Part shown: positions 1,054 to 14,946 of the stretch, one piece after another
Layout: each line of letters begins with the position of its first letter
Position numbering within the stretch: the stretch's first letter is position 1
DNA from: a virus
Taxonomy: Duplodnaviria; Heunggongvirae; Uroviricota; Caudoviricetes
Direction: 5' to 3' (one strand)
IMG/VR virus record: IMGVR_UViG_2778261570_000027
DNA: 24,489 nt
Notes under the pieces: generated by a model
Seen by the model: the letters and a program-made list of their open reading frames with translations, nothing else
Database searches by the model: none
What the model was told of the DNA's origin: nothing
Program-made: the position numbers and the translations under genes

Positions 1054-1135
1054 AAAAAGCCCTCATATCAGAGGACTAAATTTAACTGTATATGTAACCA
1101 GTAATCAATGTGTGATTACTATGAAACATACATTG

Positions 1136-2812
1136 CTAAGCAACATGTAGTTCATCGTTGGCGGAAGTGGCTGCTTTGCGCTCCTGCTCAATAGCTAGAG
1201 ACTCTCTATATTCTTTCGCCTCTGCAAACATTGTCCAGTGGGCGTTGATGTTCATGTCTTCAATAACTGATTTGATTTCTTTTAAATTTACGTTAAAAAA
1301 CTCTTTTCGTGAGTTAATTTTATTGACCTGCTTTTCGTTGAAAACTTTATGCAGATGGTTTTCTAATGATGGTGCATCATCACTATAAATCATCGCATGA
1401 ACATCGAACGAAAAAGGAACACTAGCATCTCCGAGTTCACGAACACGATCAAGTGGTTCAAGGCGGCGTGTCATTCCAATTTTATATACATCTTCGCCAA
1501 ATGAACCAATATTACTAATGATATAGACGTGGCCTGATCTGGTTTGTTGAGCCATAGAAATAGCTCGTTGATTTTTAGCTTCAGCTTCTTCATATTTTAA
1601 CTGTAGTTCAGCTATTTTTTGCTCTAAAGCTAAGCGTTGTTCTTCATTTGCAAGCATAAGTTCTTTCGTTGCTTTATTTATAGCTTGCTGAATAGCTTTT
1701 TCTTCTTTTTCAGCTTCTTTTATCGCTTTTTCATATTCTCTACGAGCTCTTTCCTCTTCACGAAGCTGTTCTTTAATCCTTCTTTGCTCTTCTTTTTCTT
1801 CGAGCATAATTTCATTAACTGCTACACCCCATTTTAGCTCGTTGAGTCTTGCCTGAAGATAGATGTCACTTATTTTTGCGGACCTAAAGGCAGAGCCATT
1901 GTAATTTACTAGTTGAAATGCATCTTTTATTTCTTGGGAAAGTTTTCCAAAATTGTTGTGTTTGACTTTTGATAAAATACTGTCAACTCTTCCATTGAAG
2001 GCATCCAAAACAAAGTTTATGGCAGTATTACGCCTGTTTTGCTCAACATAATCACACGAAGCAGCTTTATTAGTTTTTATTAATGATTTGGTTAACTCTC
2101 TGGCTTTTTGTAATTCCTTGCCTGCATCTGTAAATTCATAATTTTCTGCCAGCTCATCAAGTACACTACGGTTAGGGATGATCCATTCATCACCATAACC
2201 TTCAATTTTATTTTTCATTGATTTTGCAACTGCTTCATATTTTTCTGCAAACTCTTTAGCTTCATATGCTGAACCAGCAATCTCCTTTGCTCTTTCTTCT
2301 GCATCAGAAATAATTTTTACTGCATTGTCATTAGCATTTGAGATTAGCTCATTTGCTTTATTATTAGCATTATCAAGACGTTCTTTGGCTTTCAGGCGTG
2401 CATCGCGAGCGTCTTTGGTGATTGCTATAGCTTCGCTATTAGCGTTGCTTATTGTCATCTGAGCTTGATAATTTGCTTCGTTTACTGTTTTAGCCGCCTT
2501 AATTTGGGCTTCATCTATTTTTTGCTTGGCTATTGAGTCCGCATTTTTTATCTTATTCTCTGCATCCATTACTGCGCTGTGCAATTCTTCGTATTGCCAC
2601 AATGGTGCTGCTCGCCCTTCAAGCTCTGATAATTCTCGTACGGTCTGTGCTAGTTTTTCTTGATTTTCAATCAGTTGGTTAGAAAGGGCTATGTTGTTAG
2701 CTGTCAGGTTATCTATAGCCGCTTTGTGTTTTTTACTTTGTTTAAATAATATTACAGCTAGAACAGGGGCGAGAAATGCTAATAAGAGTATAACGATGGC
2801 AAATGAATTCAT
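1136..2812 (-). CDS. Cargo protein (558 aa): N-terminal TM helix, long coiled-coil, DUF4041-like middle region, C-terminal T5orf172/Mug113 (GIY-YIG-like) domain; candidate anti-phage defence protein
   Basis: Long ORF with an SD-like AAGGA upstream of the ATG (minus strand) and only 20 nt after the cI stop. Markedly AT-rich versus flanking int and cI. Hydrophobic aa 4-23 (SFAIVILLLAFLAPVLAVILF), then an Ala/Lys/Glu-rich heptad-like region. The C-terminal ~95 aa (GHVYIISNIGSFGEDVYKIGMTRRLEPLDRVRELGDASVPFSFDVHAMIYS..., plus-strand nt ~1250-1534) resemble the T5orf172 fold as I remember it. Confidence 0.7.
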   Translation of the reverse strand: MNSFAIVILLLAFLAPVLAVILFKQSKKHKAAIDNLTANNIALSNQLIENQEKLAQTVRELSELEGRAAPLWQYEELHSAVMDAENKIKNADSIAKQKIDEAQIKAAKTVNEANYQAQMTISNANSEAIAITKDARDARLKAKERLDNANNKANELISNANDNAVKIISDAEERAKEIAGSAYEAKEFAEKYEAVAKSMKNKIEGYGDEWIIPNRSVLDELAENYEFTDAGKELQKARELTKSLIKTNKAASCDYVEQNRRNTAINFVLDAFNGRVDSILSKVKHNNFGKLSQEIKDAFQLVNYNGSAFRSAKISDIYLQARLNELKWGVAVNEIMLEEKEEQRRIKEQLREEERARREYEKAIKEAEKEEKAIQQAINKATKELMLANEEQRLALEQKIAELQLKYEEAEAKNQRAISMAQQTRSGHVYIISNIGSFGEDVYKIGMTRRLEPLDRVRELGDASVPFSFDVHAMIYSDDAPSLENHLHKVFNEKQVNKINSRKEFFNVNLKEIKSVIEDMNINAHWTMFAEAKEYRESLAIEQERKAATSANDELHVA

Positions 2813-2832
2813 TTTAAAATCCTTTTACTATA

Positions 2833-3429
2833 TTAATTCGAGACTATTGTACTTCTTATACAAGCAACCACTTCAATATCAGAAAATGCACATTCAAAGC
2901 TATTCTCTGCTGTTGTAATTTTAATCATTCCTTTAGGAAGCCTTGTGATTTTTCGAATGGAATAGGTTCCGTCGATATTGATTAACCAGTTTCCATCAAG
3001 TACTTCAGAAAATTTTTGATCACAAATGTATGTGACGAGTCCATCCTGAACAACAATTGGTGATGAAAGGTTTGCAGGAAGAAATGATGAATCGAAGACA
3101 TATGAACCGTCTTCAATCATTTTGCCTGCGGCAAGGCGAAACTTAACAAGCTCTTCTGTAGCTGCTGTCAGCGAGCTTTGCTTAAGGCCTTGTCCGGTAG
3201 TTAACCATTTGAGGGAGGTTCCTGTTTCAAGAGCACATTGGATTATCCAGTCAGCAGGAAATGTATCCCGCAAATACCTGTTCGCTAGTGTGCTTTTTGA
3301 TACTTCCAAGTGATCAGCTAAAGCCTGTCGTGTCGTAAAGCCATAGGCTTCGACTAATCGCTCAATCGCAGCCTTACCACCTTTATTGGGATTTATTTTG
3401 ATCTCACTTGGGTACTTTGATGTTGACAT
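2833..3429 (-). CDS. cI: 186 CI-like immunity repressor (198 aa)
   Basis: Divergent from apl/cII across a short switch region. Size matches 186 CI (~192 aa) rather than P2 C (99 aa). N-terminal DNA-binding-like region (GFTTRQALADHLEVSKSTLANR). Confidence 0.75.
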   Translation of the reverse strand: MSTSKYPSEIKINPNKGGKAAIERLVEAYGFTTRQALADHLEVSKSTLANRYLRDTFPADWIIQCALETGTSLKWLTTGQGLKQSSLTAATEELVKFRLAAGKMIEDGSYVFDSSFLPANLSSPIVVQDGLVTYICDQKFSEVLDGNWLINIDGTYSIRKITRLPKGMIKITTAENSFECAFSDIEVVACIRSTIVSN

Positions 3430-3474
3430 ATCTCTTTTGCGATCCTAGTATCAGTTTTGTACCCAATTGGGTAC
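3423..3474 (+). promoter_or_regulatory. Putative rightward lytic promoter (pR-like): -35 TTGACA 3423-3428, 17-bp spacer, -10 TAGTAT 3446-3451, followed by a perfect 16-bp palindrome GTACCCAATTGGGTAC (3459-3474) as candidate operator
   Basis: Hexamers and palindrome read directly from the sequence. The half-site TTGGGTAC recurs at 3408-3415 inside the cI start region. Lies in the cI/apl intergenic region where the 186/P2 switch is. Confidence 0.45.
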
Positions 3475-3524
3475 TTGTCACGATTACTACAGGCTCACCA
3501 CAAGCCAATAGGAGATGTTGCATC

Positions 3525-3746
3525 ATGACCCCTAACATTTCAATAACTCTGAATACGCCACACGTCACAATCGAGCGTTATAGCGAACTTACTGGTCTTT
3601 CAATCGACACAATCAACGATATGTTGGCGGATGGTCGCATTCCTCGGCATCGTCTTCGTAAAGACAAGAAAAGAGAAAAGGTAATGATCAACCTTGCTGC
3701 TCTTACCGTTGATGCACTTACTGATTGCAATGTTGTATTCAACTAG
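3525..3746 (+). CDS. apl: Apl/Cox-like excisionase and switch regulator (73 aa)
   Basis: First gene of the rightward operon immediately after the switch region. AGGAG-like SD (GGAGATG 3511-3517) 8 nt before ATG 3525. Small basic protein typical of Cox/Apl. The ORF-track start at 3408 would overlap cI and is rejected. Confidence 0.65.
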
Positions 3747-3778
3747 TTCCATTTTGGGATACATCAGAGGTGTCGACC

Positions 3779-4288
3779 ATGTTTGATTACCAAGTTTCCA
3801 AACATCCACATTTTGATGAAGCCTGTCGTGCATTCGCACTGCGCCACAATCTGGTGCAACTGGCAGAACGTGCGGGCATGAATGTGCAGATTCTGCGGAA
3901 CAAGCTGAACCCAGCTCAACCTCATTTATTAACCGCACCAGAAATCTGGCTGCTTACCGATCTGACTGAAGATTCAACGTTGGTAGATGGTTTTCTGGCA
4001 CAGATTCATTGTCTGCCATGTGTACCGATTAATGAGGTAGCAAAAGAGAAACTGCCGCATTACGTCATGAGCGCAACTGCAGAGATCGGGCGTGTTGCAG
4101 CAGGTGCGGTATCTGGTGATGTAAAAACTAGTGCCGGTCGTCGTGATGCTATCAGCAGCATTAACTCTGTAACACGACTGATGGCTCTGGCTGCTGTTTC
4201 ATTGCAAGCCCGTTTACAGGCTAATCCTGCGATGGCGAGTGCAGTTGATACCATGACTGGCCTTGGTGCTTCATTCGGTTTGCTGTGA
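3779..4288 (+). CDS. cII: 186 CII-like lysogeny-establishment regulator (169 aa)
   Basis: ATG 3779 preceded by AGAGG. Length is exactly that of 186 CII (169 aa) and it sits directly after apl. The N-terminal region looks HTH-like. Confidence 0.7.
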
Positions 4289-4295
4289 GGTGTTT

Positions 4296-4592
4296 ATGCT
4301 GACGAAAGAACCATCATTTGCATCGCTGCTGGTAAAACAAAGCCCGGCAATGCACTACGGTCACGGCTGGATCACGGGTGAGGATGGAAAACGCTGGCAT
4401 CCATGTCATTCACAAGATGAATTGCTGTCTGAATTGACCACGAGGAAACGGAGAAAGTCCAAATGTATGCGGCAGAAAGTGAAGTGGTTTATCAGTTTCG
4501 TTACAGAGGGGAGAGTTATTCAGTACCTGAAGATGATTTGCTCTGTTGCTATCCGTCATTGTCGGGCGATGGCAGTTACTTTTTCACGTTAA
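4296..4592 (+). CDS. Hypothetical early-operon protein (98 aa) at the position of 186 fil; identity uncertain
   Basis: ATG 4296 with GAGG 6 nt upstream, in the same operon as cII. Overlaps the next ORF out of frame by 130 nt, so one of the two may be shorter or spurious. Confidence 0.4.
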   Translation: MLTKEPSFASLLVKQSPAMHYGHGWITGEDGKRWHPCHSQDELLSELTTRKRRKSKCMRQKVKWFISFVTEGRVIQYLKMICSVAIRHCRAMAVTFSR

Positions 4593-4687
4593 AGGATGGG
4601 ACGTTTTTACGGGGAGAGCAGGTTAAAGAGACGATACGAAAAAATGTATCTCCTCTTGAGCGTTACCGTAAGAACAAAGAACGATAG
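4463..4687 (+). CDS. Hypothetical small early protein (74 aa)
   Basis: ATG 4463 with a good SD (GGAGAAAG 4449-4456). Confidence 0.45.
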   Translation: MYAAESEVVYQFRYRGESYSVPEDDLLCCYPSLSGDGSYFFTLKDGTFLRGEQVKETIRKNVSPLERYRKNKER

Positions 4688-4709
4688 CTGCGTTTGGGGG
4701 ATATGAAGT

Positions 4710-5051
4710 ATGGCAATTAATGGCGCTGCAGCAACTGTTCCATTAAGCCCCGGTGAACGCCTGAATGGACTTAATCACATTGCGGAGTTAAGGGCGAAAG
4801 TTTTTGGCCTGAATATTGAGTCAGAGCTTGAGCGGTTTATTAAAGATATGCGTGATCCACGGGATATCAATAATGAACAAAATAAACGGGCACTGGCTGC
4901 CATATTCTTTATGGCAAAAATTCCAGCTGAACGTCATAGCATCAGCATTAATGAGCTGACCACTGACGAAAAGCGGGAGCTGATTAAAGCAATGAATCAT
5001 TTTCGTGCAGTGGTGAGCTTATTTCCCAGACGGCTAACCATGCCGAATTAA
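4710..5051 (+). CDS. Hypothetical early protein (113 aa)
   Basis: ORF in the rightward early operon; ATG 4710 preceded by a G-rich stretch. No domain recognised. Confidence 0.5.
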   Translation: MAINGAAATVPLSPGERLNGLNHIAELRAKVFGLNIESELERFIKDMRDPRDINNEQNKRALAAIFFMAKIPAERHSISINELTTDEKRELIKAMNHFRAVVSLFPRRLTMPN

Positions 5052-5118
5052 CCAACTAATGAAATTAATGGCGTAAACCCGCCGGGCATCCCTTTATCTA
5101 AATTCAGGAGAATTGATT

Positions 5119-5352
5119 ATGCGTAATATTGAAACCCTCACGACTAAAACCGGACCGGATGACGCAGGGCTTAATATTTTACTGACAGAGGCTCGTCTGG
5201 AAGAACGCCGGGCAAGGGCTGAAGCAATGGCTGCTCGCCTTGATAGCCTGGCGTGTCATATCTCATCCCGCCAGCTAAACCACGTGGAAGCGGCAGAACT
5301 GCTGCGCGTGACTGCTGAAGCAATCCAGAACGAAGCGCAGGAGATCCACTAA
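5119..5352 (+). CDS. Hypothetical small early protein (77 aa, Ala/Glu-rich helical)
   Basis: ATG 5119 with AGGAG (5105-5109) upstream. Stop TAA overlaps the next start (TAATG at 5350-5354). Confidence 0.5.
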   Translation: MRNIETLTTKTGPDDAGLNILLTEARLEERRARAEAMAARLDSLACHISSRQLNHVEAAELLRVTAEAIQNEAQEIH

Positions 5353-5579
5353 TGGCTGATGCAATGGATCTCGTACAGCAGCGCGTTGAAGAAGAACGCC
5401 AGCGCCATATCCGTGCAGCCCGTGCCAAATCACCGGGCGTGTCACGCGTACTTTGCATTGAATGTGAAGCGCCAATTCCGCCAGCACGACGCCGCGCCAT
5501 TCCGGGAGTGCAGCTTTGCATTACCTGTCAGGAAATCGCAGAACTGAAAGGCAAACATTACAACGGAGGTGCTGTATGA
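5352..5579 (+). CDS. TraR/DksA-family C4 zinc-finger protein (75 aa)
   Basis: CxxC ... CxxC motif (CIECEAPIPPARRRAIPGVQLCITC) in a ~75-aa protein, typical of phage TraR/DksA-like proteins. Translationally coupled to neighbours. Confidence 0.7.
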   Translation: MADAMDLVQQRVEEERQRHIRAARAKSPGVSRVLCIECEAPIPPARRRAIPGVQLCITCQEIAELKGKHYNGGAV

Positions 5580-6433
5580 GCACCATCCTGAAATGGGCGG
5601 GAAATAAAACCGCCATTATGCCAGAACTGAAAAAATACCTTCCTGCTGGCCCGCGACTGGTTGAACCTTTCGCGGGTTCCTGTGCTGTGATGATGGAAAC
5701 GGATTATCCCAGCTATCTGGTTGCGGATATTAATCCTGATTTAATCAACCTCTATAAAAAGGTTGCCGCTGATTGTGAATCGTTTATATCTCGCGCCAGA
5801 GTTTTATTTGAGATCGCAAACAGGGAGGTGGCTTATTACAACATAAGGCAGGAGTTTAACTGCTCAACTGAAATTACTGATTTCATGAAAGCGGTATATT
5901 TCCTGTATCTCAATCGTCACGGTTACCGTGGTTTATGTCGCTATAACAAGAGCGGGCATTTCAACATTCCCTACGGTAATTATAAAAATCCGTATTTCCC
6001 TGAAAAAGAACTTCGCACATTTGCAGAAAAAGCCCAGCGAGCAACGTTTATCTGCGCCAGCTTTGATGAAACGCTGGCGATGTTGAAGGCGGGAGATGTG
6101 GTGTATTGCGATCCGCCATATGACGGTACGTTTTCCGGCTATCACACTGATGGTTTCACTGAAGATGACCAGTATCACCTGGCATCCGTTCTTGAACATC
6201 GGTCATCAGAAGGACATCCGGTCATTGTTTCTAACAGTGACACATCCCTGATCCGTTCGCTGTATCGCAATTTTACTCACCACTATATCAAGGTAAAACG
6301 CAGCATCGGTGTGGCAGCTGGCGAGGGTAAATCAGCAACAGAAATCATTGCTGTTTCCGGGCCGCGCTGCTGGATGGGATTTGATTATTCGCGTGGCGTG
6401 GATAGTTCTGCCGTGTACGGAGTACGTGCATGA
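5576..6433 (+). CDS. dam: Dam-family DNA N6-adenine methyltransferase (285 aa), orphan (no cognate nuclease seen)
   Basis: Strong resemblance to E. coli Dam as I recall it: [42 protein letters not shown] and the DPPY catalytic motif ([10 protein letters not shown]). ATGA overlaps with both neighbours. Confidence 0.88.
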
Positions 6434-8844
6434 GTCATGCCGATATGAACAACTGCTGCGGCTTTAACGAGGCTGCCGCAGCATTCTCATGGAACAGCCC
6501 GAAAAAGGCCATTAACCCTTATCTGGACCCGGCGGAAGTTGCGCCGGTTTCTACGCTTTCAAACCTGATCACTCTGTACGCTGCCGATAACGAGCAGGAA
6601 CAGTTGCGCCGCGAGGCACTGAGTGATCAGGTCTGGGAGCGTTATTTCTTTAATGAATCACGTGATCCTGTCCAGCGCGAAATGGAGCAGGATAAGCTCA
6701 TTAGCCGGGCAAAGCTGGCGCATGAGCAGCAGCGTTTTAATTCAGACATGGTCATTCTGGCGGACGTCAACGCCCAGCCTTCCCATATCAGCAAGCCGCT
6801 GATGCAACGTATTGAATACTTCAGCAGCCTGGGCAGGCCAAAGGCTTATTCCCGCTATTTACGTGAGACGATTAAGCCATGTCTGGAACGACTGGAGCAT
6901 GTACGCGACAGTCAGCTATCTGCATCTTTTCGCTTTATGGCAAGCCATGAAGGGCTGGACGGCCTGCTGATCCTGCCTGAAATGAGTCAGGATCAGGTGA
7001 AACGCCTGTCCACCCTGGTAGCTGCGCATATGAGTATGTGCCTTGATGCAGCTTGTGGTGATTTGTATGCCACCGATGACGTTAAGCCAGAAGAAATCCG
7101 CAAGACATGGGAAAAGGTGGCAGCGGAAACCCTGCGTCTGGATGTCATCCCACCTGCGTTTGAGCAACTCCGTCGGAAAAGAAACCGCCGTAAACCCGTG
7201 CCGTATGAACTCATTCCGGGTTCGCTGGCGCGTATGTTGTGCGCCGACTGGTGGTATCGGAAATTATGGAAGATGCGTTGCGAATGGCGGGAAGAGCAGT
7301 TGCGCGCTGTTTGCCTGGTCAGCAAAAAAGCATCTCCTTATGTCAGCTATGAAGCCGTGATGCATAAACGTGAGCAGCGCCGTAAGTCGCTGGAGTTTTT
7401 CCGTTCTCATGAACTGGTGAACGAAGACGGCGACACGCTGGACATGGAGGATGTGGTAAACGCCAGCAGCAGCAACCCTGCGCATCGCCGCAATGAGATG
7501 ATGGCCTGTGTTAAAGGTCTGGAGCTTATCGCGGAAATGCGCGGTGACTGCGCCGTTTTCTACACTATCACCTGTCCGTCGCGTTTCCATTCCACGCTAA
7601 ATAACGGCAGACCAAACCCGACCTGGACAAACGCGACGGTAAGACAAAGCAGCGATTATCTGGTCGGCATGTTTGCTGCATTTCGTAAGGCGATGCACAA
7701 AGCCGGGTTGCGCTGGTATGGCGTGCGGGTGGCTGAGCCGCATCATGATGGCACAGTTCACTGGCACCTGTTGTGTTTCATGCGCAAAAAAGACCGCCGT
7801 GCCATCACTGCATTACTGCGTAAGTTTGCCATCCGTGAAGACCGCGAGGAGCTGGGCAATAACACTGGGCCGCGCTTTAAGTCTGAGTTGATTAACCCGC
7901 GCAAAGGAACGCCGACAAGCTACATCGCGAAATATATCAGTAAGAACATTGACGGTCGTGGTCTGGCTGGCGAGATCAGCAAGGAAACGGGTAAATCTCT
8001 GCGTGATAACGCTGAATACGTGAATGCCTGGGCGTCTCTGCATCGTGTTCAGCAATTCCGCTTCTTTGGTATTCCGGGGCGTCAGGCTTACCGTGAACTT
8101 CGCTTGCTGGCTGGTCAGGCGGCAAGGCAACAGGGTGACAAAAAAGCAGGTGCGCCGGTACTGGATAACCCGCGTCTTGATGCCATTCTGGCTGCTGCTG
8201 ATGCTGGTTGTTTTGCCACCTACATCATGAAGCAGGGCGGCGTACTGGTTCCCCGTAAATATCACCTCATCAGAACCGCTTATGAAATCAACGAAGAGCC
8301 GACCGCCTATGGCGATCACGGCATTCGTATTTATGGCATCTGGTCACCCATTGCAGAGGGCAAGATCTGCACTCATGCAGTGAAGTGGAAAATGGTTCGT
8401 AAAGCCGTTGACGTTCAGGAGGCGGCAGCCGACCAGGGCGCTTGCGCCCCTTGGACTCGTGGCAATAACTGTCCCCTTGCTGAAAATTTGTACCAACAAG
8501 GGAAAGACAAATCAGCTGATGGGGATACCAGAACGGATATCACCCGCATGGATGACAAGGAATTGCACGATTACCTGCACAGTATGAACAAAAAAGAGCG
8601 TCGGGAACTGGCTGCAAGGTTACGCCTGGTGAAACCGAAACGGCGTAGAGACTACAAACAGCGAATTACAGATCATCAGCGACAGCAGCTCGTCTATGAA
8701 CTGAAGTCCAGAGGATTTGATGGCAGCGAGAAAGAGGTCGATTTACTCCTTCGCGGCGGCAGCATTCCGTCAGGAGCAGGCCTGCGTATTTTCTATCGGA
8801 ACCAGCGTTTGCAGGAAGATGATAAGTGGCGGAACCTGTATTAA
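6430..8844 (+). CDS. A: P2/186 gpA-type rolling-circle replication initiation endonuclease (804 aa)
   Basis: Very large last gene of the early operon, in the position and size range of P2 gene A (761 aa). ATG overlaps the dam stop (ATGA). Contains a region reminiscent of the RCR metal-binding motif (HWHLLCF). Confidence 0.8.
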
Positions 8845-8936
8845 TTACGCGGGTTAACAATTCGTGCTCTTAATAATACCAGGTATATCAGGCTGATGAA
8901 CGTAAAAAAACGTTTTACATCAGTAAGATTATTATA

Positions 8937-8956
8937 TACTGTAAATATAAACAGTG
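8937..8956 (+). promoter_or_regulatory. LexA (SOS) box TACTGTAAATATAAACAGTG
   Basis: CTGT-N8-ACAG core at 8939-8954 with an AT-rich spacer, matching the consensus TACTGTATATATATACAGTA. Located ~45 nt upstream of the next gene in an AT-rich promoter-like region. Confidence 0.6.
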
Positions 8957-8997
8957 CTTATATATACAGTATTGCTTGTGGTGTCATAGGAGGAAAG

Positions 8998-9186
8998 ATG
9001 CAGGACTATTTTTTGGAGTCTTTGAAGCTCCAGCGCATTGATTTTTTTCTTAAGCTTGTAGCGGCTAGTGAGTGTAGTGATGAAGAGAAGGGGCTGGCCC
9101 TGCAGTGGGTTTCTGAACTGACAGATGAACTCATGGCAAAAATCAGAACCCACGAATACAACCGCTCAATGGATGTCATCAGCTGA
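8998..9186 (+). CDS. Small SOS-operon protein (62 aa); possibly the N-terminal part of a Tum-like antirepressor
   Basis: ATG 8998 with a strong SD (GGAGGAAAG) directly upstream and downstream of the LexA box. The longer ORF-track start (8896) would run through the LexA box and lacks an SD. Confidence 0.45.
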   Translation: MQDYFLESLKLQRIDFFLKLVAASECSDEEKGLALQWVSELTDELMAKIRTHEYNRSMDVIS

Positions 9187-9196
9187 GGTGACTTTT

Positions 9197-9430
9197 ATGC
9201 GCATTGAAATAATGATCGATAAAGAGCAGAAGATTAGCCAGTCTACCCTGGACGCCCTTGAATCCGAGCTTTACCGCAATCTGCGCCCCCTGTATCCCAA
9301 AACGGTAATTCGCATTCGCAAAGGTAGCTCTAACGGTGTGGAACTGACCGGACTGCAACTGGACGAAGAAAGGAAGCAAGTGATGAAAATTATGCAGAAG
9401 GTGTGGGAAGACGACAGCTGGCTGCATTAA
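9197..9430 (+). CDS. DinI-family protein (77 aa)
   Basis: MRIEIMIDKEQ... aligns by eye with E. coli DinI (MRIEVTIAKT...), including a Trp-containing acidic motif (WEDDSW) near the C-terminus. ATG 9197 lies 10 nt after the previous stop and is under the LexA box. Confidence 0.7.
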   Translation: MRIEIMIDKEQKISQSTLDALESELYRNLRPLYPKTVIRIRKGSSNGVELTGLQLDEERKQVMKIMQKVWEDDSWLH

Positions 9431-9717
9431 GAAACGTTGCCCCCAAGAGGATTCATTCTGATGGGGGACTATTTTGGGCAACGAGTGAAACGAGGCGTTA
9501 GGTGGACGGCCATTTTGATAAGTGATCGTCCGCTTTTTGTTCTGAGTTCAAGCGATGGATTTAACACACTGGTTGAAGCAGAAGTATCTAAGTTCAATTT
9601 ATATTATTTGAAGGGCACTGGTCTGATGTAGTACGATTTTTGCCGGAGATGGCATGTTCTATATTGATCTCATCCATATAATGATTGGTATTATTAGCTT
9701 AGTTTAAAGAGGATTGA

Positions 9718-11295
9718 ATGGATATCAACTATGTTGTTTCAAAAATGGGGTTCGTAGATGATCTTATTAATGCAGGTTCATTTGATTCTGCCTATAAAAA
9801 TGTAAAGGATATTCTTAACGGTACCGATGAGATAAATACAATCAAAGAAAATAGAATAATTATATTATCTAATTTGGCCGGAAATCTTATTGATATCGGA
9901 AGTTTTAGTAATGTAAAAAATATAGCGGAGGAAGGCTTAAATATCTTTATAAACAATAAAAATGAATTTCTGACTATAATGAAAGAATCCTTATATTACT
10001 ATAACTTGGCAAATGGAATGAGCGCAGTTCTTGATTTTAATCCTAATGACAATGCAGATATTGATAGTTTCATTAAGCTGAATGATGTAAAAAATAATTA
10101 CTGGAAAGCGTTTAAACTTTCACAAGAAGATGGATGGGTGCCCCCTGATTTAATAGTTAATCTAGCTAATGTATTAAAAAAACAATATCGTATATCTGAA
10201 TCAATGGATTATTATGAACAAGCAATATCTATTGATAACTCAATTCCTCAGGCGTGGGTAAACAGATCTGAGGCATTAGAATTGCTTAATGAATTATCTA
10301 CAACATATACATATAAAATGATTAAAGAAGTTATTCGAGGTTATGAGTGTGCAATAAAGTCAGGGAAATGTTTTCCTTCATGGAAGGTTGCTCTTCAAAG
10401 AAAAATAAAGTACAACGAAAGTATATTGAGTGAATCATGTGTATATGGCATAGAGGATATAAGTACAGATGAAAGGCTCACGCAGGAGGAGTATGATACT
10501 TTATCAAACTACCAGAGGTTTTGTATAGATAATAATCTAATGTTGTCTGATCATTCGCTATATTGCAATTGTTATGCGTCATCTAAAGATAATATAACTA
10601 TTGCTACCACCGAGGAAGGTGTGTTTGGTGATTTTATAGTGCCAATGGAAATGGTGTTAAATAGACTTAAAGCTGAGTATTCCTTAGCACGAAAAATGTT
10701 TTTTGAATATAAGGTTGATAGTGAGTTTTTTGATGAGGATTCGGAGGTATGTTATTCTGAATTGTATAATGGAGAAATATTGTATGAAAATGTTGAGAAG
10801 TTAAGGGTTGCATTTAGAGCTTGCTTTGGTATCTTGGATAAAATAGCAGTTGCTCTGTGTCAATTATTTGATTTAAAACCAGATAGAGGACATATATACT
10901 TTCATAACTTCTGGCGGATTAGTGATGAAAAAAGAAAGCTTAAAATAAACAAAATAAATAATAAAGGATTGCTGGGTTTGTTTAGTATTGCTATGGATTT
11001 GAATGATAAAAATGGTGAGCTTGCTTTTTTTAAAGAATGGAGGAATGATTTAGAACATAAACTGTTAGTTATTCACGAGAAAGACATGTTAGTTGATTTA
11101 TATAATTCTTATGGGTTTTTTGATGAGGTGAGGTTTATTGAGAAAGAAAAGTTTGAGAAACAGCTCTTACAACTCATGAAAATTGTGAGATCAGCCGTTA
11201 TTCTTTTTGTGTTTACCATACGTATAGAGGGGAAAAAAAGTATTCCTAAAGATATGTTGACCATTAAAAATACCATCGAGAGAAAAGTATTGTAG
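9718..11295 (+). CDS. Cargo protein (525 aa) with TPR-like N-terminal region and C-terminal Rx4H HEPN-type motif; candidate abortive-infection or defence RNase
   Basis: Uninterrupted 1.58-kb ORF with SD AAAGAGGA (9706-9713) and a perfect TATAAT at 9677-9682. Strikingly AT-rich versus the flanking phage genes. R-N-D-L-E-H at aa 442-447 (nt 11041-11058) fits the HEPN Rx4-6H motif. Sits between gene A/SOS operon and cos, the P2 tin/old position. Confidence 0.7.
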   Translation: MDINYVVSKMGFVDDLINAGSFDSAYKNVKDILNGTDEINTIKENRIIILSNLAGNLIDIGSFSNVKNIAEEGLNIFINNKNEFLTIMKESLYYYNLANGMSAVLDFNPNDNADIDSFIKLNDVKNNYWKAFKLSQEDGWVPPDLIVNLANVLKKQYRISESMDYYEQAISIDNSIPQAWVNRSEALELLNELSTTYTYKMIKEVIRGYECAIKSGKCFPSWKVALQRKIKYNESILSESCVYGIEDISTDERLTQEEYDTLSNYQRFCIDNNLMLSDHSLYCNCYASSKDNITIATTEEGVFGDFIVPMEMVLNRLKAEYSLARKMFFEYKVDSEFFDEDSEVCYSELYNGEILYENVEKLRVAFRACFGILDKIAVALCQLFDLKPDRGHIYFHNFWRISDEKRKLKINKINNKGLLGLFSIAMDLNDKNGELAFFKEWRNDLEHKLLVIHEKDMLVDLYNSYGFFDEVRFIEKEKFEKQLLQLMKIVRSAVILFVFTIRIEGKKSIPKDMLTIKNTIERKVL

Positions 11296-11302
11296 TATAT
11301 TT

Positions 11303-11335
11303 TCATCGAGCGATGAAACGGTCTGTTTTTCTTTA
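11303..11335 (+). terminator. Weak candidate terminator after the 525-aa gene (short hairpin TTCATC-gagc-GATGAA followed by a T-rich tract)
   Basis: Seen by eye only: AT-rich 6-bp stem, then GTCTGTTTTTCTTT. Confidence 0.3.
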
Positions 11336-11617
11336 TAGTTTTGTCATAAAAAAGAGATTTCCTGCTTAAAATTTGGCTATTACAGAGCAACTATGTATGT
11401 TCCTCGCTCACAGTAGAGCTTCATCTTTGTAAGTCTGTATGTTTCGTTTTTCAAGTGGTCATTCAGATACGGACTTTCACTTCTCTTAGACAGTGCATGA
11501 CTATGCTGCATGAAATCGCATGATCGTTTAAGGATCGTTTTTGCTAAGGCTCGCCAGAACTAGCGGGCTTTTACGTAGAACATGCAGGTGCATGAAAACC
11601 ACTACATAAAGCGGGCA

Positions 11618-11636
11618 GGCGTGGCGGGGATACGAG
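11618..11636. other. Candidate cos cohesive-end core (GGCGTGGCGGGGATACGAG)
   Basis: The G-rich 13-mer GGCGTGGCGGGGA matches my recollection of the P2/186 cohesive-end start (GGCG[A/T]GGCGGGGAAAGCA...). It lies in the only long non-coding stretch, between the accessory region and portal gene Q, where cos is expected. Confidence 0.45.
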
Positions 11637-11815
11637 CGCGCGTAACGGGGCGAAAAAGTAATAATCCCGCGTATTGGAGAGATTGATTTGAAGTTTTCGG
11701 GATCGTGTTGCAATATATTGGCACACATTAAATGATGTTGATTTCATTGACTTAATGTGGAAATGGAACTGTGAAACAACATACGTCAGCGATGTTACTT
11801 TCAAAAGGATAGACA

Positions 11816-12109
11816 ATGAAAACCATATACAACTATGACTTTCAATACTTACGTAAAGGGGATACGCGACCTCTTGATGATGGAGAGATTGTAAGATGTT
11901 CTTCGGAAGACAATCCACTCCTGATGCTTCCGAATGTTGGGGATTATGTCGACATTACCAACAATAAAGACCGTGAGTCGTTTGGTGGGAAAGTGAAATC
12001 AAGGTTATTCAGATATACTCGAGTAAGTGAAGACCATGTTATTTGCAACATCAATATTGTTGTTGAAGAGGTTGAAGACTCGGTATGGGGCACACTTGTT
12101 AAAGAGTAA
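11816..12109 (+). CDS. Hypothetical 97-aa moron protein between cos and Q
   Basis: ATG 11816 with SD AAAGGA 5-6 nt upstream, followed immediately by a strong hairpin terminator. Lower GC than the late genes. No domain recognised. Confidence 0.5.
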   Translation: MKTIYNYDFQYLRKGDTRPLDDGEIVRCSSEDNPLLMLPNVGDYVDITNNKDRESFGGKVKSRLFRYTRVSEDHVICNINIVVEEVEDSVWGTLVKE

Positions 12110-12111
12110 AC

Positions 12112-12137
12112 AAAGCGCCTGCAGTAGCAGGCGCTTT
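12112..12137. terminator. Bidirectional rho-independent terminator (AAAGCGCCTGC-agta-GCAGGCGCTTT)
   Basis: Perfect 11-bp inverted repeat with a 4-nt loop and T-rich flanks on both strands. Lies between the convergent 97-aa ORF (+) and Q (-). Confidence 0.7.
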
Positions 12138-12154
12138 CTGAGCCTAATCTATAT

Positions 12155-13183
12155 CTAATACATATAAGGTTCGAAGCGAATTATTTCTTCGCCCAGCCAG
12201 TCGTTAAGCTCCTGCAGTCGCTTCTGTAACGGCATCAGTTCGTTGCGGACAAAGACGCGGCTGGCTTTTTCAACATCACCAAATCCCCCAACATTACTCG
12301 GCATGATTCCCATCATTTGTGGCGGTACACGGTGCGCAGCCATCATGTCATCGCGGCTGACATTTTTGATATTCAGAAACTCATCCTTCGCCGCGACTTC
12401 TGACAACGGGATGATCTGAAGCCCGTCCTTTTTGCCGTTAGGCGAGTACATGAACAGATTGCGGAAGTTACCTGGTCCTTTGGCACTTTTCATCGCATTG
12501 CGAAGGTTGTTCACGTCCTCCTGGTTCTGCGCGGCATCGGTCATGTACATGATGAAGCCTGCATGACTGCCGTTAATGTAATACTTACGGCGGAACAGCG
12601 TGGCGGACTCGTTGAGCAGGGCTGACGGAATGGCAGAAAGATAACCTGGCAGGCCGTAGATCTCCTGGTTGATGTCCGGTTCCATCAGATGAAAAATGCT
12701 GCCTTTCGTGAACTGATACGGCTGGGTTGTCATACCGTATTGCACAAACCAGTAGGTATCCAGGTCTAACCCGCGTCGGGTGTATTTTGCCAGAGCAGGC
12801 TCAAGGGCGATAACTTCACCGAAACGGTTCGTGCGTTTCTCCAGGTAGGCGTTACCAAAAACCAGATAGTCCTGTACAAAACGCGAAAAAGCCTGCTGGC
12901 TGAGCAGCGGGTGAGGGATGTAGGTGCTGGTCAGAATGTTGCACTTCACTGCAATCGGTGAGCTGTGATGCACGGCGGCGCGGAAAGTTCGCGCCAGTCC
13001 GTCGAAACTCACAGGCGGCTCATACCAACGATCCATCTGTACGCATTCCACATAGTCCAGCAGTTCGCGGCGGTCCAGAACAGGAACGGGATCACCGAAG
13101 CTGAATGCTTCGGCTGAAGTCTGGCCTTTATGCTGGATCTGTTTCGTCGACGCAGCGCGGTTCTTCTTACTCTTTCCCATCAA
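12155..13183 (-). CDS. Q: Portal protein, P2 gpQ homologue (342 aa)
   Basis: Size and position (last gene of the leftward P-Q operon, next to cos) match P2 Q (344 aa). Start overlaps the P stop. Confidence 0.85.
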   Translation of the reverse strand: MMGKSKKNRAASTKQIQHKGQTSAEAFSFGDPVPVLDRRELLDYVECVQMDRWYEPPVSFDGLARTFRAAVHHSSPIAVKCNILTSTYIPHPLLSQQAFSRFVQDYLVFGNAYLEKRTNRFGEVIALEPALAKYTRRGLDLDTYWFVQYGMTTQPYQFTKGSIFHLMEPDINQEIYGLPGYLSAIPSALLNESATLFRRKYYINGSHAGFIMYMTDAAQNQEDVNNLRNAMKSAKGPGNFRNLFMYSPNGKKDGLQIIPLSEVAAKDEFLNIKNVSRDDMMAAHRVPPQMMGIMPSNVGGFGDVEKASRVFVRNELMPLQKRLQELNDWLGEEIIRFEPYMY

Positions 13184-14946
13184 AAAATCTCCACAATATT
13201 GCTGGTATTGGCGGACTCGCCCTGCAGTGGTTCGTTAAACAGTGCGTGCATTGTTGCCCAGGCCAGATCGGCATGGCTGGCTTCTTCGCTGCGGCTGGCT
13301 TCATAGGTCGGGCGGTTGCCACTGGCAGTGGTAGCGCGACGGATTGCCATAAATGACTGCGCAATGTCGGTGTGCCCGGCGTCAAACTCCAGACGGCGGT
13401 GGCTGATAATGTCGTAGGCCTTGAGTACCAGGGCGTTTTTAACGTTGGGGTTGTAGACAAACTCCCGGACGGCAGGAAAGAACGCTTTCACGTTCTCGTA
13501 AACCCCGTGACCAACGCCGGTTGAGTCGATTCCGATATAAGTCACGTTGTACTGTTCGGTAAGTTTTTTGATGGCGTCAGCCTGGGCGCGGAAGTCCATC
13601 CCGCGCCACTGGTGACGCTCAAGAATGCGGAACTTACCACCCGGCACGGCTGGCGGTGCCACCACTACGCATCCGGCGCTGTCGCCGTTTTGCGTACCTT
13701 TTGCCGGGTCATAACCGATCCACACTTCGCGCCAGCCAAACGGGCGCAGCGCCAGTGCATGAAAGTCGGTCCAGACTTCCCAACTGTCCACCATGCACGC
13801 CTGCAGCTCGCTGAGCGGAAACACGGACGCGAGATCGTCCACAAACTCGCACATCAGCAGGTTCTGGTATTCGTCTGGGCTGTACTCCATGCGTAGCTGG
13901 TCGAGGTCGAACAGGTTACAGCCGCCGCGCACCGCATCTTCCACGGTGACTATCTGGCGGTATTGCCCGTCTGCGCACAGCAGGCCGGGGGCCAGATTGC
14001 TGTGGGACAGGTCGATGTCCACCTTATCGGTTTTGTTGCGCCCACGGTTAAACAGCGCACCGGACCAGAACGGATAAGCACTGTGTGTCAGGCTGGATGG
14101 CGTGGAAAAATAGGTTTGTCGCCATTTTTTGTGAATAGCCATACCGGAAGCCACCTTGCGCAGCTCCTGGAATTTCGGTATCCAGAAATATTCATCCAGA
14201 TACAGGTTGCCGTGGTAACTCTGGGCCGTGCGGGCATTGGTGCCGAGGAAGTAAAGCGTGGCCCCGTTGGGAAGCACCATCGGATCGCCTTTCAGCTCCA
14301 CCTCCACTTCTTTGGCGAAGTCGATGATGTACTGTTTAAAGACGTGGGCCTGTGCCTTACTGGCGGAAAGGAAAATCTGGTTACGTCCGGTAAGCAGGGC
14401 GTCAATCAGGGCTTCACGGGCAAAGTAAAAGGTCGCGCCGATCTGGCGTGACTTCAGCAGGTTGCGGATGCGGTTGGTTTTTCCGGCTTCCCACCAGTGG
14501 CGCTGGTAGTTGAACATGGAGGAATGGAAGATTTCTTCCAGCTTCTCAATCTGTTCATCGGTGAAAACGTTCTTTTCCGGCTGACGACGCGGGCCTTTGT
14601 TGCGGTTGGCGACGTTAGGGTTTAAGTCGGCTTCGTTGCCGCCATTGTTAAACTTGCCGATCCGCGCGTGGCGCTCCGACTGGCGCGCCAGCAGGTCAAT
14701 CTCTTTGAAATCTTTCCCTTCTTTGTGCTCCTTCATAATGAGCTGGCAGTAGCGTGCGGCGGTGGTGAGCTGCATCTGATCCAGCGGCCCATAGTCACCC
14801 CACTTGTCGCGTTTTTTCCAGCTGTGAACGGTTGCAACTTTCTCGCCCAGCATTTCAGCAATGCGGGCTACGCGGTATCCCTGAAAGTACAGCAGCATGG
14901 CCTGCCGACGGGGATCGAGATCTGCGGGTGTCAGTGTGGTGTTCAT
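13180..14946 (-). CDS. P: Terminase large (ATPase) subunit, P2 gpP homologue (588 aa)
   Basis: Size matches P2 P (590 aa). Divergent from O across a short late-promoter region, as in P2. Confidence 0.85.
   Translation of the reverse strand: MNTTLTPADLDPRRQAMLLYFQGYRVARIAEMLGEKVATVHSWKKRDKWGDYGPLDQMQLTTAARYCQLIMKEHKEGKDFKEIDLLARQSERHARIGKFNNGGNEADLNPNVANRNKGPRRQPEKNVFTDEQIEKLEEIFHSSMFNYQRHWWEAGKTNRIRNLLKSRQIGATFYFAREALIDALLTGRNQIFLSASKAQAHVFKQYIIDFAKEVEVELKGDPMVLPNGATLYFLGTNARTAQSYHGNLYLDEYFWIPKFQELRKVASGMAIHKKWRQTYFSTPSSLTHSAYPFWSGALFNRGRNKTDKVDIDLSHSNLAPGLLCADGQYRQIVTVEDAVRGGCNLFDLDQLRMEYSPDEYQNLLMCEFVDDLASVFPLSELQACMVDSWEVWTDFHALALRPFGWREVWIGYDPAKGTQNGDSAGCVVVAPPAVPGGKFRILERHQWRGMDFRAQADAIKKLTEQYNVTYIGIDSTGVGHGVYENVKAFFPAVREFVYNPNVKNALVLKAYDIISHRRLEFDAGHTDIAQSFMAIRRATTASGNRPTYEASRSEEASHADLAWATMHALFNEPLQGESANTSNIVEIF

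Follow-up and report, generated by a model that had tools for sequence, protein, structure and literature searches.

A self-contained cassette for an uncharacterised 97-residue protein in the classical cos-to-portal slot of a 186/P2-like prophage

Organization of the Locus

The window, i.e., the whole stretch of 24,489 nucleotides that was analysed, comprises the left two-thirds of a 186/P2-like prophage. Its genes are arranged in the order integrase, DUF4041 protein, CI, CII, Fil, Dam, replication endonuclease A and a DinI-like gene; next come a cargo gene, cos and the reading frame orf97, after which the portal and terminase L genes are encoded on the minus strand, ahead of the capsid and tail genes. 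The features that are discussed in the following sections are listed below.

9718-11295, plus strand: 525-aa protein with TPR and an LA2681-type HEPN domain, a separate cargo (Pfam HEPN_LA2681, E 1.8e-38)
11618-11636, plus strand: cos cohesive-end core GGCGTGGCGGGGATACGAG, left border of the cargo slot
11646-12196, plus strand: exchangeable orf97 cargo module, delimited by blastn break points
11708-11736, plus strand: weak sigma-70-like promoter candidate, TTGCAA-17 nt-AATGAT, inferred by eye (8/12 matches)
11805-11809, plus strand: Shine-Dalgarno sequence AAGGA, read from the sequence, 6 nt before the ATG
11816-12109, plus strand: orf97, 97 aa, ATG start and TAA stop (open reading frame list; PHROG 12676 match)
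12112-12137, no strand assigned: perfect 11-bp hairpin with a 4-nt loop, between the convergent orf97 and portal genes
12155-13183, minus strand: portal gene, homologue of P2 Q and 186 W (open reading frame list), right border of the slot
13180-14946, minus strand: terminase L (open reading frame list)

The P2-type cohesive-end core GGCGTGGCGGGG occurs only once in the window, at position 11618, and GGCGNGGCGGGG likewise has one match, against ~0.01 expected by chance. The core matches the annotated 19-nt cos of phage 186 (GGCGTGGCGGGGAAAGCAT) as well as the cos of P2, and the surrounding block, 11501-11647, is conserved across 60 P2-like phage records. The portal protein on the other side shares 62-65% identity with the portals of P2 and 186 (tblastn) and is labelled “phage portal protein” in identical E. 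coli prophages; the 3′ end of its gene, 12155-12196, belongs to the swapped module described below. The reading frame at 11816-12109 is thereby situated between the cos core (11618-11636) and the portal stop codon at 12155. The GC content is 0.395 in orf97 (GC3 0.378) and 0.396 in the module, compared with 0.522 in the portal gene and 0.564 in terminase L, and this step from 0.396 to 0.52-0.56 is the compositional mark of a cargo slot. The original prediction had described a reading frame of lower GC content with its own Shine-Dalgarno sequence, located in the cos-portal interval, convergent with the portal gene and ending in a hairpin, and in all these respects it is confirmed.

The start codon of orf97 can be regarded as fixed, because the N-terminus MKT.Y.YD(F/Y)QYL is conserved throughout the family. 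The signals further upstream are less distinct. The promoter candidate at 11708-11736, which is overlapped by a palindrome at 11705-11726, is missing from the output of the promoter scan because it scores below the threshold, and no sigma-70-like site on the plus strand upstream of orf97 passes that threshold. Both hexamers are retained in an allele of 87% identity (locus L042); the upstream regions of more distant alleles are unrelated to that of the window. The search for regulatory RNAs and Rfam elements around orf97 found none.

Borders of the Exchanged Module

Comparison of the window with E. coli ECCTRSRTH03 (L139) by blastn reveals 99.8% identity up to position 11645, none over 11646-12196, and 91.8% from 12197 onward. 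Two phages with an empty site (L019 and L074) align with the window up to 11671 and resume at 12164/12165. These break points place the exchanged unit at about 11646-12196. Besides the Shine-Dalgarno sequence, the reading frame and the hairpin, it contains ~170 bp of private AT-rich DNA upstream and the final ~14 portal codons. Recombination has put the cassette in the place of the native spacer of ~160 bp, including its tW/tQ terminator, between the portal gene and the conserved cos block; the original final ~14 codons of the portal gene were replaced as well. What occupies the classical cos-to-portal slot of this 186/P2-like prophage is a self-contained cargo cassette with a single gene.

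The Hairpin between orf97 and the Portal Gene

The hairpin begins three bases past the orf97 stop codon. Its arms, AAAGCGCCTGC at 12112-12122 and GCAGGCGCTTT at 12127-12137, enclose the loop agta and form the perfect 11-bp stem that had been predicted, with seven GC pairs. The folding energy amounts to -21.2 kcal/mol on the plus strand and -23.5 kcal/mol on the minus strand (z about -4.4 to -4.5), and none of 200 shuffles folds as stably, a stability in keeping with an intrinsic terminator. The terminator scan flags the hairpin on the minus strand only, where the stem is followed by the tail GTTTACTCTT. The tail after the stem on the plus strand is CTGAGCC, and the only T run there is formed by the three T of the stem arm. 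Hence, the strong bidirectional terminator that was originally proposed is partly borne out: the stable hairpin and a U-tract on the minus strand are present, while the plus strand offers just the TTT of the stem arm and is not flagged. Judged from these sequence features, the hairpin is predicted to act on the terL-portal transcript as a canonical intrinsic terminator and to be weaker in this capacity for orf97.

Annotated terminators, tQ in P2 and tW in 186, are located at the equivalent place. A related hairpin accompanies orf97 alleles down to 68% protein identity, and where retron Ec67 occupies the slot, both the hairpin and the portal 3′ end differ from these. The general design of the slot is thus cargo, then hairpin, then portal end. 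That cargo modules supply their own terminator for the portal operon is a point of practical use. In the present prophage the hairpin would stand in for tW and stop late terminase-portal transcription short of cos, and the orf97 transcript would probably be ended less efficiently.

The cos-Portal Slot as a Known Cargo Hotspot

In the records of P2 and 186, cos occupies positions 1-19, tQ/tW positions 160-187, and the portal stop codon lies at 187 (P2) or 196 (186), which leaves a cos-portal spacer of ~170-180 bp. Yersinia phage MLG42, a close relative of the window phage, also has an empty site, of 178 bp. The slot was surveyed in 80 IMG/VR contigs with a portal at least 94% identical to that of the window, and the cos core was located in 74 of them. 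Cargo of 0.5-3.5 kb lies between cos and the portal gene in 72 of the 74, the other two having a spacer of ~180 bp, and the reading frames in the 72 occupied relatives are all convergent with the portal gene. Cargo proteins in the slot of these relatives match 220 PADLOC models, including AbiU and the Ec67-type retron reverse transcriptase (RT-Toprim). The flanks of the interval are therefore conserved, its interior is variable, and empty forms exist (two relatives, MLG42, P2 and 186), as expected of a hotspot. The statement that P2-type genomes normally have only a short spacer at this place consequently applies to P2 and 186, but not to the close relatives of the window phage; the interval is clearly not identical across P2-like phages.

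E. coli ECCTRSRTH03 provides an instructive comparison. Its cos core, at locus position 5519, lies between an LA2681-HEPN gene that is 99.8% identical to that of the window and the reverse transcriptase of retron Ec67, which occupies the place of orf97 between cos and the portal gene. The position had already been named a hotspot by Dodd and Egan in 1996 and by Nakayama in 1999, as these works are cited in PMC5694545, and the slot has been known since 1996 to gather foreign, mostly anti-phage, genes. According to that citation of Dodd and Egan (Virology 219:115), the cos-tW/cos-Q site of 186-related prophages, which houses the retrons Ec67 and Ec86, is the same position: foreign DNA supplants the spacer from cos to the end of the portal gene, and the cargo is oriented toward the portal gene, from which a terminator separates it. 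The window differs in that its cargo is a 97-aa protein rather than a retron. A further difference concerns the extent of the replacement, since the title of Dodd and Egan has the retrons replacing the DNA from cos to the terminator, whereas the orf97 module also replaces the terminator and ~14 portal codons.

The “old/tin” hotspot of P2 has been defined as everything between gpA and gpQ (PMC9122126; PMC13586616; bioRxiv 10.1101/2024.10.15.618418), and under this definition the orf97 interval falls within it. Like other residents of that hotspot, orf97 is situated between gpA and gpQ, beside cos, in low-GC mosaic DNA, and the other occupants of its slot are known defence systems. In contrast, orf97 has its place on the portal side of cos, and P2 old and tin are found on the gpA side; these halves lie at either end of the linear virion DNA and assort independently; and orf97 has no match to any known defence model. 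The slot is the portal-side half of the known gpA-gpQ hotspot and not a new insertion point. The original prediction had counted it as a third insertion point of the prophage, a claim that gives way to an ordinary cos-Q cargo slot, occupied in 97% of close relatives and known since 1996. The position, a textbook cargo slot of 186/P2-like prophages, teaches nothing new; what is uncharacterised here is the protein alone. We consider this anatomy and the hotspot assignment very probably correct.

Residence in the hotspot is a weak guide to function, because only three of eight additional P2-hotspot systems cloned by Rousset et al. in 2022, whose data comprise roughly 18,000 gpA-gpQ loci, were active and the hotspot also houses genes with other functions (PMC9122126).

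Independent Assortment across cos

The interval between the DinI stop codon and cos, which holds the HEPN gene (GC 0.309) in the window, spans 0.9-3.5 kb in 40 of 56 relatives and is an empty site of ~208 bp in the remaining 16. One orf97 allele (at least 99% identical) is paired across cos with at least four different cargos. In the window this cargo is the HEPN protein; in E. coli G5 and L041 it is a three-gene cassette, in 2014C-3011 a P-loop NTPase, and in L040 a pair of 241 and 269 aa. In E. coli M9682-C1 the three-gene cassette has been disrupted by IS1 and orf97 is intact. An identical module is present in E. coli G5, 2014C-3011 and SMN152SH1. Among complete E. coli genomes, the HEPN cargo is found in 11 and an orf97-family gene in 12, with zero overlap. 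The family is rare in this species, these 12 genomes being drawn from 5426, of which 1280 match the portal or cos query. cos divides the gpA-gpQ hotspot into two independently assorting halves, both usually occupied in this lineage, and surveys that pool everything between gpA and gpQ as one “system” should be adjusted for this split.

Conservation and Structure of the Protein Family

A search of a collection of 5.8 billion proteins yielded 89 homologues of the orf97 protein at E ≤ 1e-3, of 91-122 aa, nearly all of them 91-102 aa long. The exhaustive profile search of 1.84 billion representatives extended the family to 216 clusters (50% identity), almost all stand-alone proteins of ~90-105 aa. 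Eleven alignment columns are invariant (P39, V41, G42, D43, G58, V60, L64, F65, C77, E84 and E85) and 18 further columns are at least 90% conserved. Among alleles on P2-like prophages dN/dS is 0.08-0.16, with synonymous sites near saturation. orf97 is under strong purifying selection, and the number of homologues and clusters together with the dN/dS values establishes it as a real gene. A length that varied among related elements would have spoken against the prediction; the length is kept.

The protein is acidic and soluble, with a pI of 4.85 (family median 4.74) and no transmembrane or hydrophobic segment. A confident model (pLDDT 90.6, pTM 0.81) was obtained with AlphaFold2 from the family alignment; it has a short helix at the C-terminus, preceded by four main beta strands, of which two make up a long hairpin. 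Fold searches with this model found no structural relative, and BFVD returned only weak matches, to small uncharacterised phage proteins. The sequence matches PHROG 12676 over its full length (residues 1-97 to profile positions 1-97 of 97, E 7.6e-49). The PHROG family carries no annotation, so that membership in it is uninformative on function. orf97 has no match in Pfam or NCBIfam and none among PADLOC-DB v2 families at E ≤ 0.01, Pfam gave nothing consistent on all 60 aligned members, and no mention of the family was found in literature and supplements searched by accession or PHROG number. The absence of a recognisable motif, noted from the sequence at the outset, thus holds across Pfam, NCBIfam and PADLOC, the unannotated PHROG 12676 being the only match. 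No match was obtained when the protein was compared by tblastn with 50,697 deposited phage genomes; members of the family come from prophages and IMG/VR contigs.

Several leads were pursued and rejected. One UniRef homologue is labelled PilZ; neither a PilZ profile match nor a PilZ-like barrel in the fold search was obtained. A profile-to-PDB sequence search pointed to a GD-box or cradle-loop barrel (AbrB/MazE swapped-hairpin, double-psi), which found no support in hhalign against AbrB or MazE or in the fold searches and was rejected. Domain fusions are no guide to function either: the longer family proteins look like miscalled starts or frameshift chimeras, and only one of them, a truncated copy, carries a Pfam domain (TetR_N).

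Genomic Contexts of the Homologues

Other P2-like contigs (L042-L049, L137/138) contain homologues of 55-87% identity in the same cos-portal interval, the ATG always lying 117-405 bp from the cos core; in some of these contigs an extra unrelated gene separates orf97 from the portal gene. A Halomonas P2-like prophage (L035) has its homologue between portal and cos in the opposite orientation. A decayed 186-like remnant in Serratia marcescens retains CI, CII, Fil, orf97 and a portal fragment. The homologue of Comamonas prophages lies between terminase L and portal, with gaps of 16-20 bp, and that of an Agrobacterium prophage is near the integrase end.

Other copies are found away from P2-like prophages. 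In Alishewanella, the homologue belongs to an array of co-oriented reading frames that includes TIR, AbiTii and DUF4917 genes. Repeats ending in GCGTTAG/GCGTTAT precede several of these frames, with one repeat before (7952-7978) and one after (8362-8389) the homologue; no integrase was found within the 16 kb examined. Recent transfer is indicated by proteins of 90% identity or more in Alishewanella, Idiomarinaceae, Halomonas and Photobacterium. In Kushneria the gene occupies the same chromosomal context in four species, and further copies are carried by P. syringae conjugative plasmids, where they sit in a run of small co-directional reading frames, and by a 32-kb linear element of Klebsiella. 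In 19 further loci the commonest neighbour family is phage integrase (five loci); a DUF4238 neighbour occurs twice, and portal, capsid, terminase, Zot and Ltp once each. DUF4238 is a validated anti-T7 protein (PMC9122126).

An unrelated co-directional gene is present just downstream in about half of the homologues. The all-against-all comparison of neighbours found no recurrent partner besides the P2 portal and terminase. A type II toxin-antitoxin pair was considered and rejected, there being no conserved adjacent partner and the downstream genes being unrelated. As a single gene, orf97 is mobile among Proteobacteria, where it is found in prophage hotspots, on plasmids, in chromosomes and in an integron-like cassette array. 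Its designation in the original prediction as an independent accessory gene, or “moron”, is supported.

Proposed Role of orf97 and Alternatives

The orf97 protein lacks an enzymatic motif as well as known fold relatives, and its gene has no partner. The best overall explanation, in which we place about even confidence, is that it is a stand-alone cassette protein with a putative conflict role. It may act alone by binding a conserved target and may serve phage-phage or phage-host conflict; the chances for and against some such role, suggested by association, appear equal. Conservation across proteobacterial classes suggests that the target or ligand is itself conserved. Downstream co-directional genes in about half of the homologues weigh against the stand-alone part of this explanation, as some lineages may have a two-part arrangement.

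As to the mode of action, the gene may be transcribed toward the portal from its own weak candidate promoter, independently of the late genes, and the protein would then be made in the lysogen. Tentatively, we favour exclusion or defence by binding, expressed in the lysogen, over counter-defence, because the usual company of orf97 is conflict genes. A benefit to the cell is also suggested by the gene being intact in degraded prophages (Serratia, E. coli M9682-C1) and in Kushneria chromosomes. DicB of the Qin prophage is a small soluble prophage protein that protects the lysogen by binding a host protein. orf97 resembles it in being small, cytoplasmic, prophage-borne and encoded by a single gene, with no enzymatic domain; we claim no sequence or structural relation, and a protective phenotype of orf97 is putative. 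Several observations are at odds with this proposal. The Comamonas homologue is apparently part of a late operon (terL-portal), which fits a role in the lytic cycle better; the plus-strand scan passes no promoter, and the upstream region is not conserved among distant alleles; and a defence reading has to contend with the lack of PADLOC, Pfam or NCBIfam homology and with the rarity of the gene (12/5426 E. coli).

With similar caution, orf97 may found a new class of single-protein immune or counter-immune modules of ~97 aa, which have a fold with no solved relative, bind a conserved phage or host target, and owe their distribution over Alpha-, Beta-, Gamma- and Deltaproteobacteria to prophage hotspots, plasmids and integron-like cassettes. 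The value of the locus lies in this cargo, a compact, strongly conserved, partner-less and unannotated family that recurs in conflict-associated hotspots. The family is a cheap candidate for phage-challenge or anti-defence screening, and a single gene of 300 bp would be a convenient minimal system if a phenotype were found.

The foremost alternative, which we regard as unlikely, is a counter-defence (anti-immunity) protein that binds and blocks a host system for the benefit of the phage or mobile element. Small, acidic, soluble and partner-less proteins are typical of anti-defence, and the gene is carried by several unrelated phage types. The Comamonas copy inside the late packaging operon, between terL and portal, the run of small co-directional reading frames around the copies on P. 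syringae conjugative plasmids, and the weak BFVD matches to small uncharacterised phage proteins are all consistent with it. However, a benefit to the phage only is hard to see where the gene is intact in decayed prophages or syntenic in Kushneria, and the integron-like cassette is placed among defence-type cassettes. The identity of 40-60% across proteobacterial classes is also above our own expectation for a fast-evolving inhibitor, and a 2026 survey found anti-defence genes in only 28 P2-like elements (PMC13586616).

Ranking after it, and likewise unlikely, is a small ligand-binding or regulatory protein that alters host physiology, perhaps through binding of a nucleotide or of a core protein of the host, as a form of lysogenic conversion without a part in phage conflict.

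It is improbable that orf97 is one half of two-gene systems, a sensor-, adaptor- or antitoxin-like component with a variable downstream effector, of which the window copy would be an orphan. Co-directional genes do follow at 16-122 bp in six loci (L045, 298 aa; L046, 233 aa; L047, 385 aa; L005, 246 aa; L015, 261 aa; L012, 162 aa), and orf97 together with a hydrophobic, probably membrane protein of ~230 aa is shared by L046 and L137/138 (73% and 52% identity). Against this, the downstream genes are mutually unrelated and lack Pfam domains, hairpins lie between orf97 and the gene that follows, and solo copies exist in the window, G5, L042-44, L049, Kushneria and Serratia. Co-orientation is expected anyway in stacked hotspot or integron cargo.

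An accessory role in packaging or head assembly is very improbable. It is prompted by the position of the gene, which adjoins the portal gene in P2-like prophages of E. coli, Salmonella, Serratia and Halomonas and lies between terL and portal in Comamonas. The L048 and L052 copies adjoin a run of large reading frames on the opposite strand, and matches of neighbours include a P22-type portal and an Sf6-type small terminase, which are not assigned to L048 or L052. Yet orf97 is absent from P2, 186 and 69 of the 74 close relatives, whose virions assemble without it, and the tblastn search of the 50,697 phage genomes gave no match. The family is also found in integron-like, plasmid and purely chromosomal contexts, and the lower GC content and mosaic borders of orf97 mark it as cargo. 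Lastly, a chance reading frame beside a hairpin that alone is functional, as the terminator of the portal operon, would be compatible with the promoter scan and the rarity of the gene in E. coli, but is effectively refuted by the length conserved across 89 or more homologues, the 216 clusters and the dN/dS of 0.08-0.16; the confident structure model and the full-length PHROG match also speak against it.

Two slots divided by cos

The gpA-gpQ hotspot of these prophages comprises two halves, which are divided by cos. Among the related IMG/VR loci (L059-L138), 72 of 74 carry cargo on the portal side, which in the window is occupied by the 97-aa gene orf97, and 40 of 56 carry cargo on the DinI side. 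A direct case of alternative occupants in one slot is provided by E. coli ECCTRSRTH03, which has the HEPN cargo in common with the window and carries the retron Ec67 RT between cos and portal (5519-7592 of locus L139), at the place of orf97. Pooling all gpA-gpQ content in surveys may fuse two independent cargos into one “system”. The window also holds these two genes:

9718-11295, + strand: TPR and LA2681-type HEPN protein, 525 aa, GC 0.31, on the gpA/DinI side of cos
1136-2812, - strand: DUF4041 protein between integrase and CI, PADLOC match to PD-Lambda-1 (E 6.6e-120)

The 525-aa gene is a cargo separate from orf97. It is present in 11 complete E. coli genomes among 5426 complete genomes; orf97 was found in none of these 11, and thus the pairing seen in the window is absent from the 5426. 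The DUF4041 match identifies an established defence system, PD-Lambda-1, at the integrase-CI hotspot.

Retention in decayed prophages

What is left of a decayed 186-like prophage in Serratia marcescens (4900-9050 in L002-L004) includes CI, CII, Fil and DUF5347 as well as a fragment of the portal gene, and its orf97 homologue is intact. The defence cargo beside CI, either GmrSD_N with HEPN or AAA_15, differs by strain. In E. coli M9682-C1 (456-4760 of L141), a cassette of three genes that lies on the DinI side of cos is interrupted by two IS1 copies, and the prophage has lost most of its late genes; orf97, portal and terminase L are still intact.

Other settings of orf97 homologues

In Comamonas testosteroni prophages (8001-8288; L009-L011, L053), the homologue lies between terminase L and portal with gaps of 16-20 bp, apparently inside the late operon. 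This is in contrast to P2-like prophages, where orf97 is convergent and self-terminated. Two loci (L046, 10001-11049; L137, 5058-6090) encode homologues 73% identical to each other, each followed 3' by a hydrophobic protein of ~230 aa (52% identical), probably a membrane protein, in which no Pfam domain was found. The two genes form a conserved arrangement of one sub-lineage.

Outside prophages, four Kushneria species (L033, L034, L036, L037) share the chromosomal neighbours of the homologue, with ABC transporter, QueF and nitroreductase genes upstream, which suggests that the gene is inherited vertically there and is not part of a recognisable mobile element. In Alishewanella (1100-13000; L006/L007), the homologue is found in a co-oriented ORF array that looks like an integron cassette array, includes TIR_2, DUF4917 and AbiTii genes, and has repeats ending GCGTTAG/GCGTTAT before several ORFs. 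An IS110-family transposase adjoins the homologue, as does a homologous transposase in Desulfuromonas (L005).

Leader repeats

Two repeats precede or overlap the start of orf97 in the window:

11705-11726: 12-nt palindrome overlapping a candidate -35 hexamer
11735-11752 / 11811-11828: imperfect 18-nt inverted repeat

Each is a possible regulatory element, and the inverted repeat could allow the 5' leader to pair with the SD and start codon.
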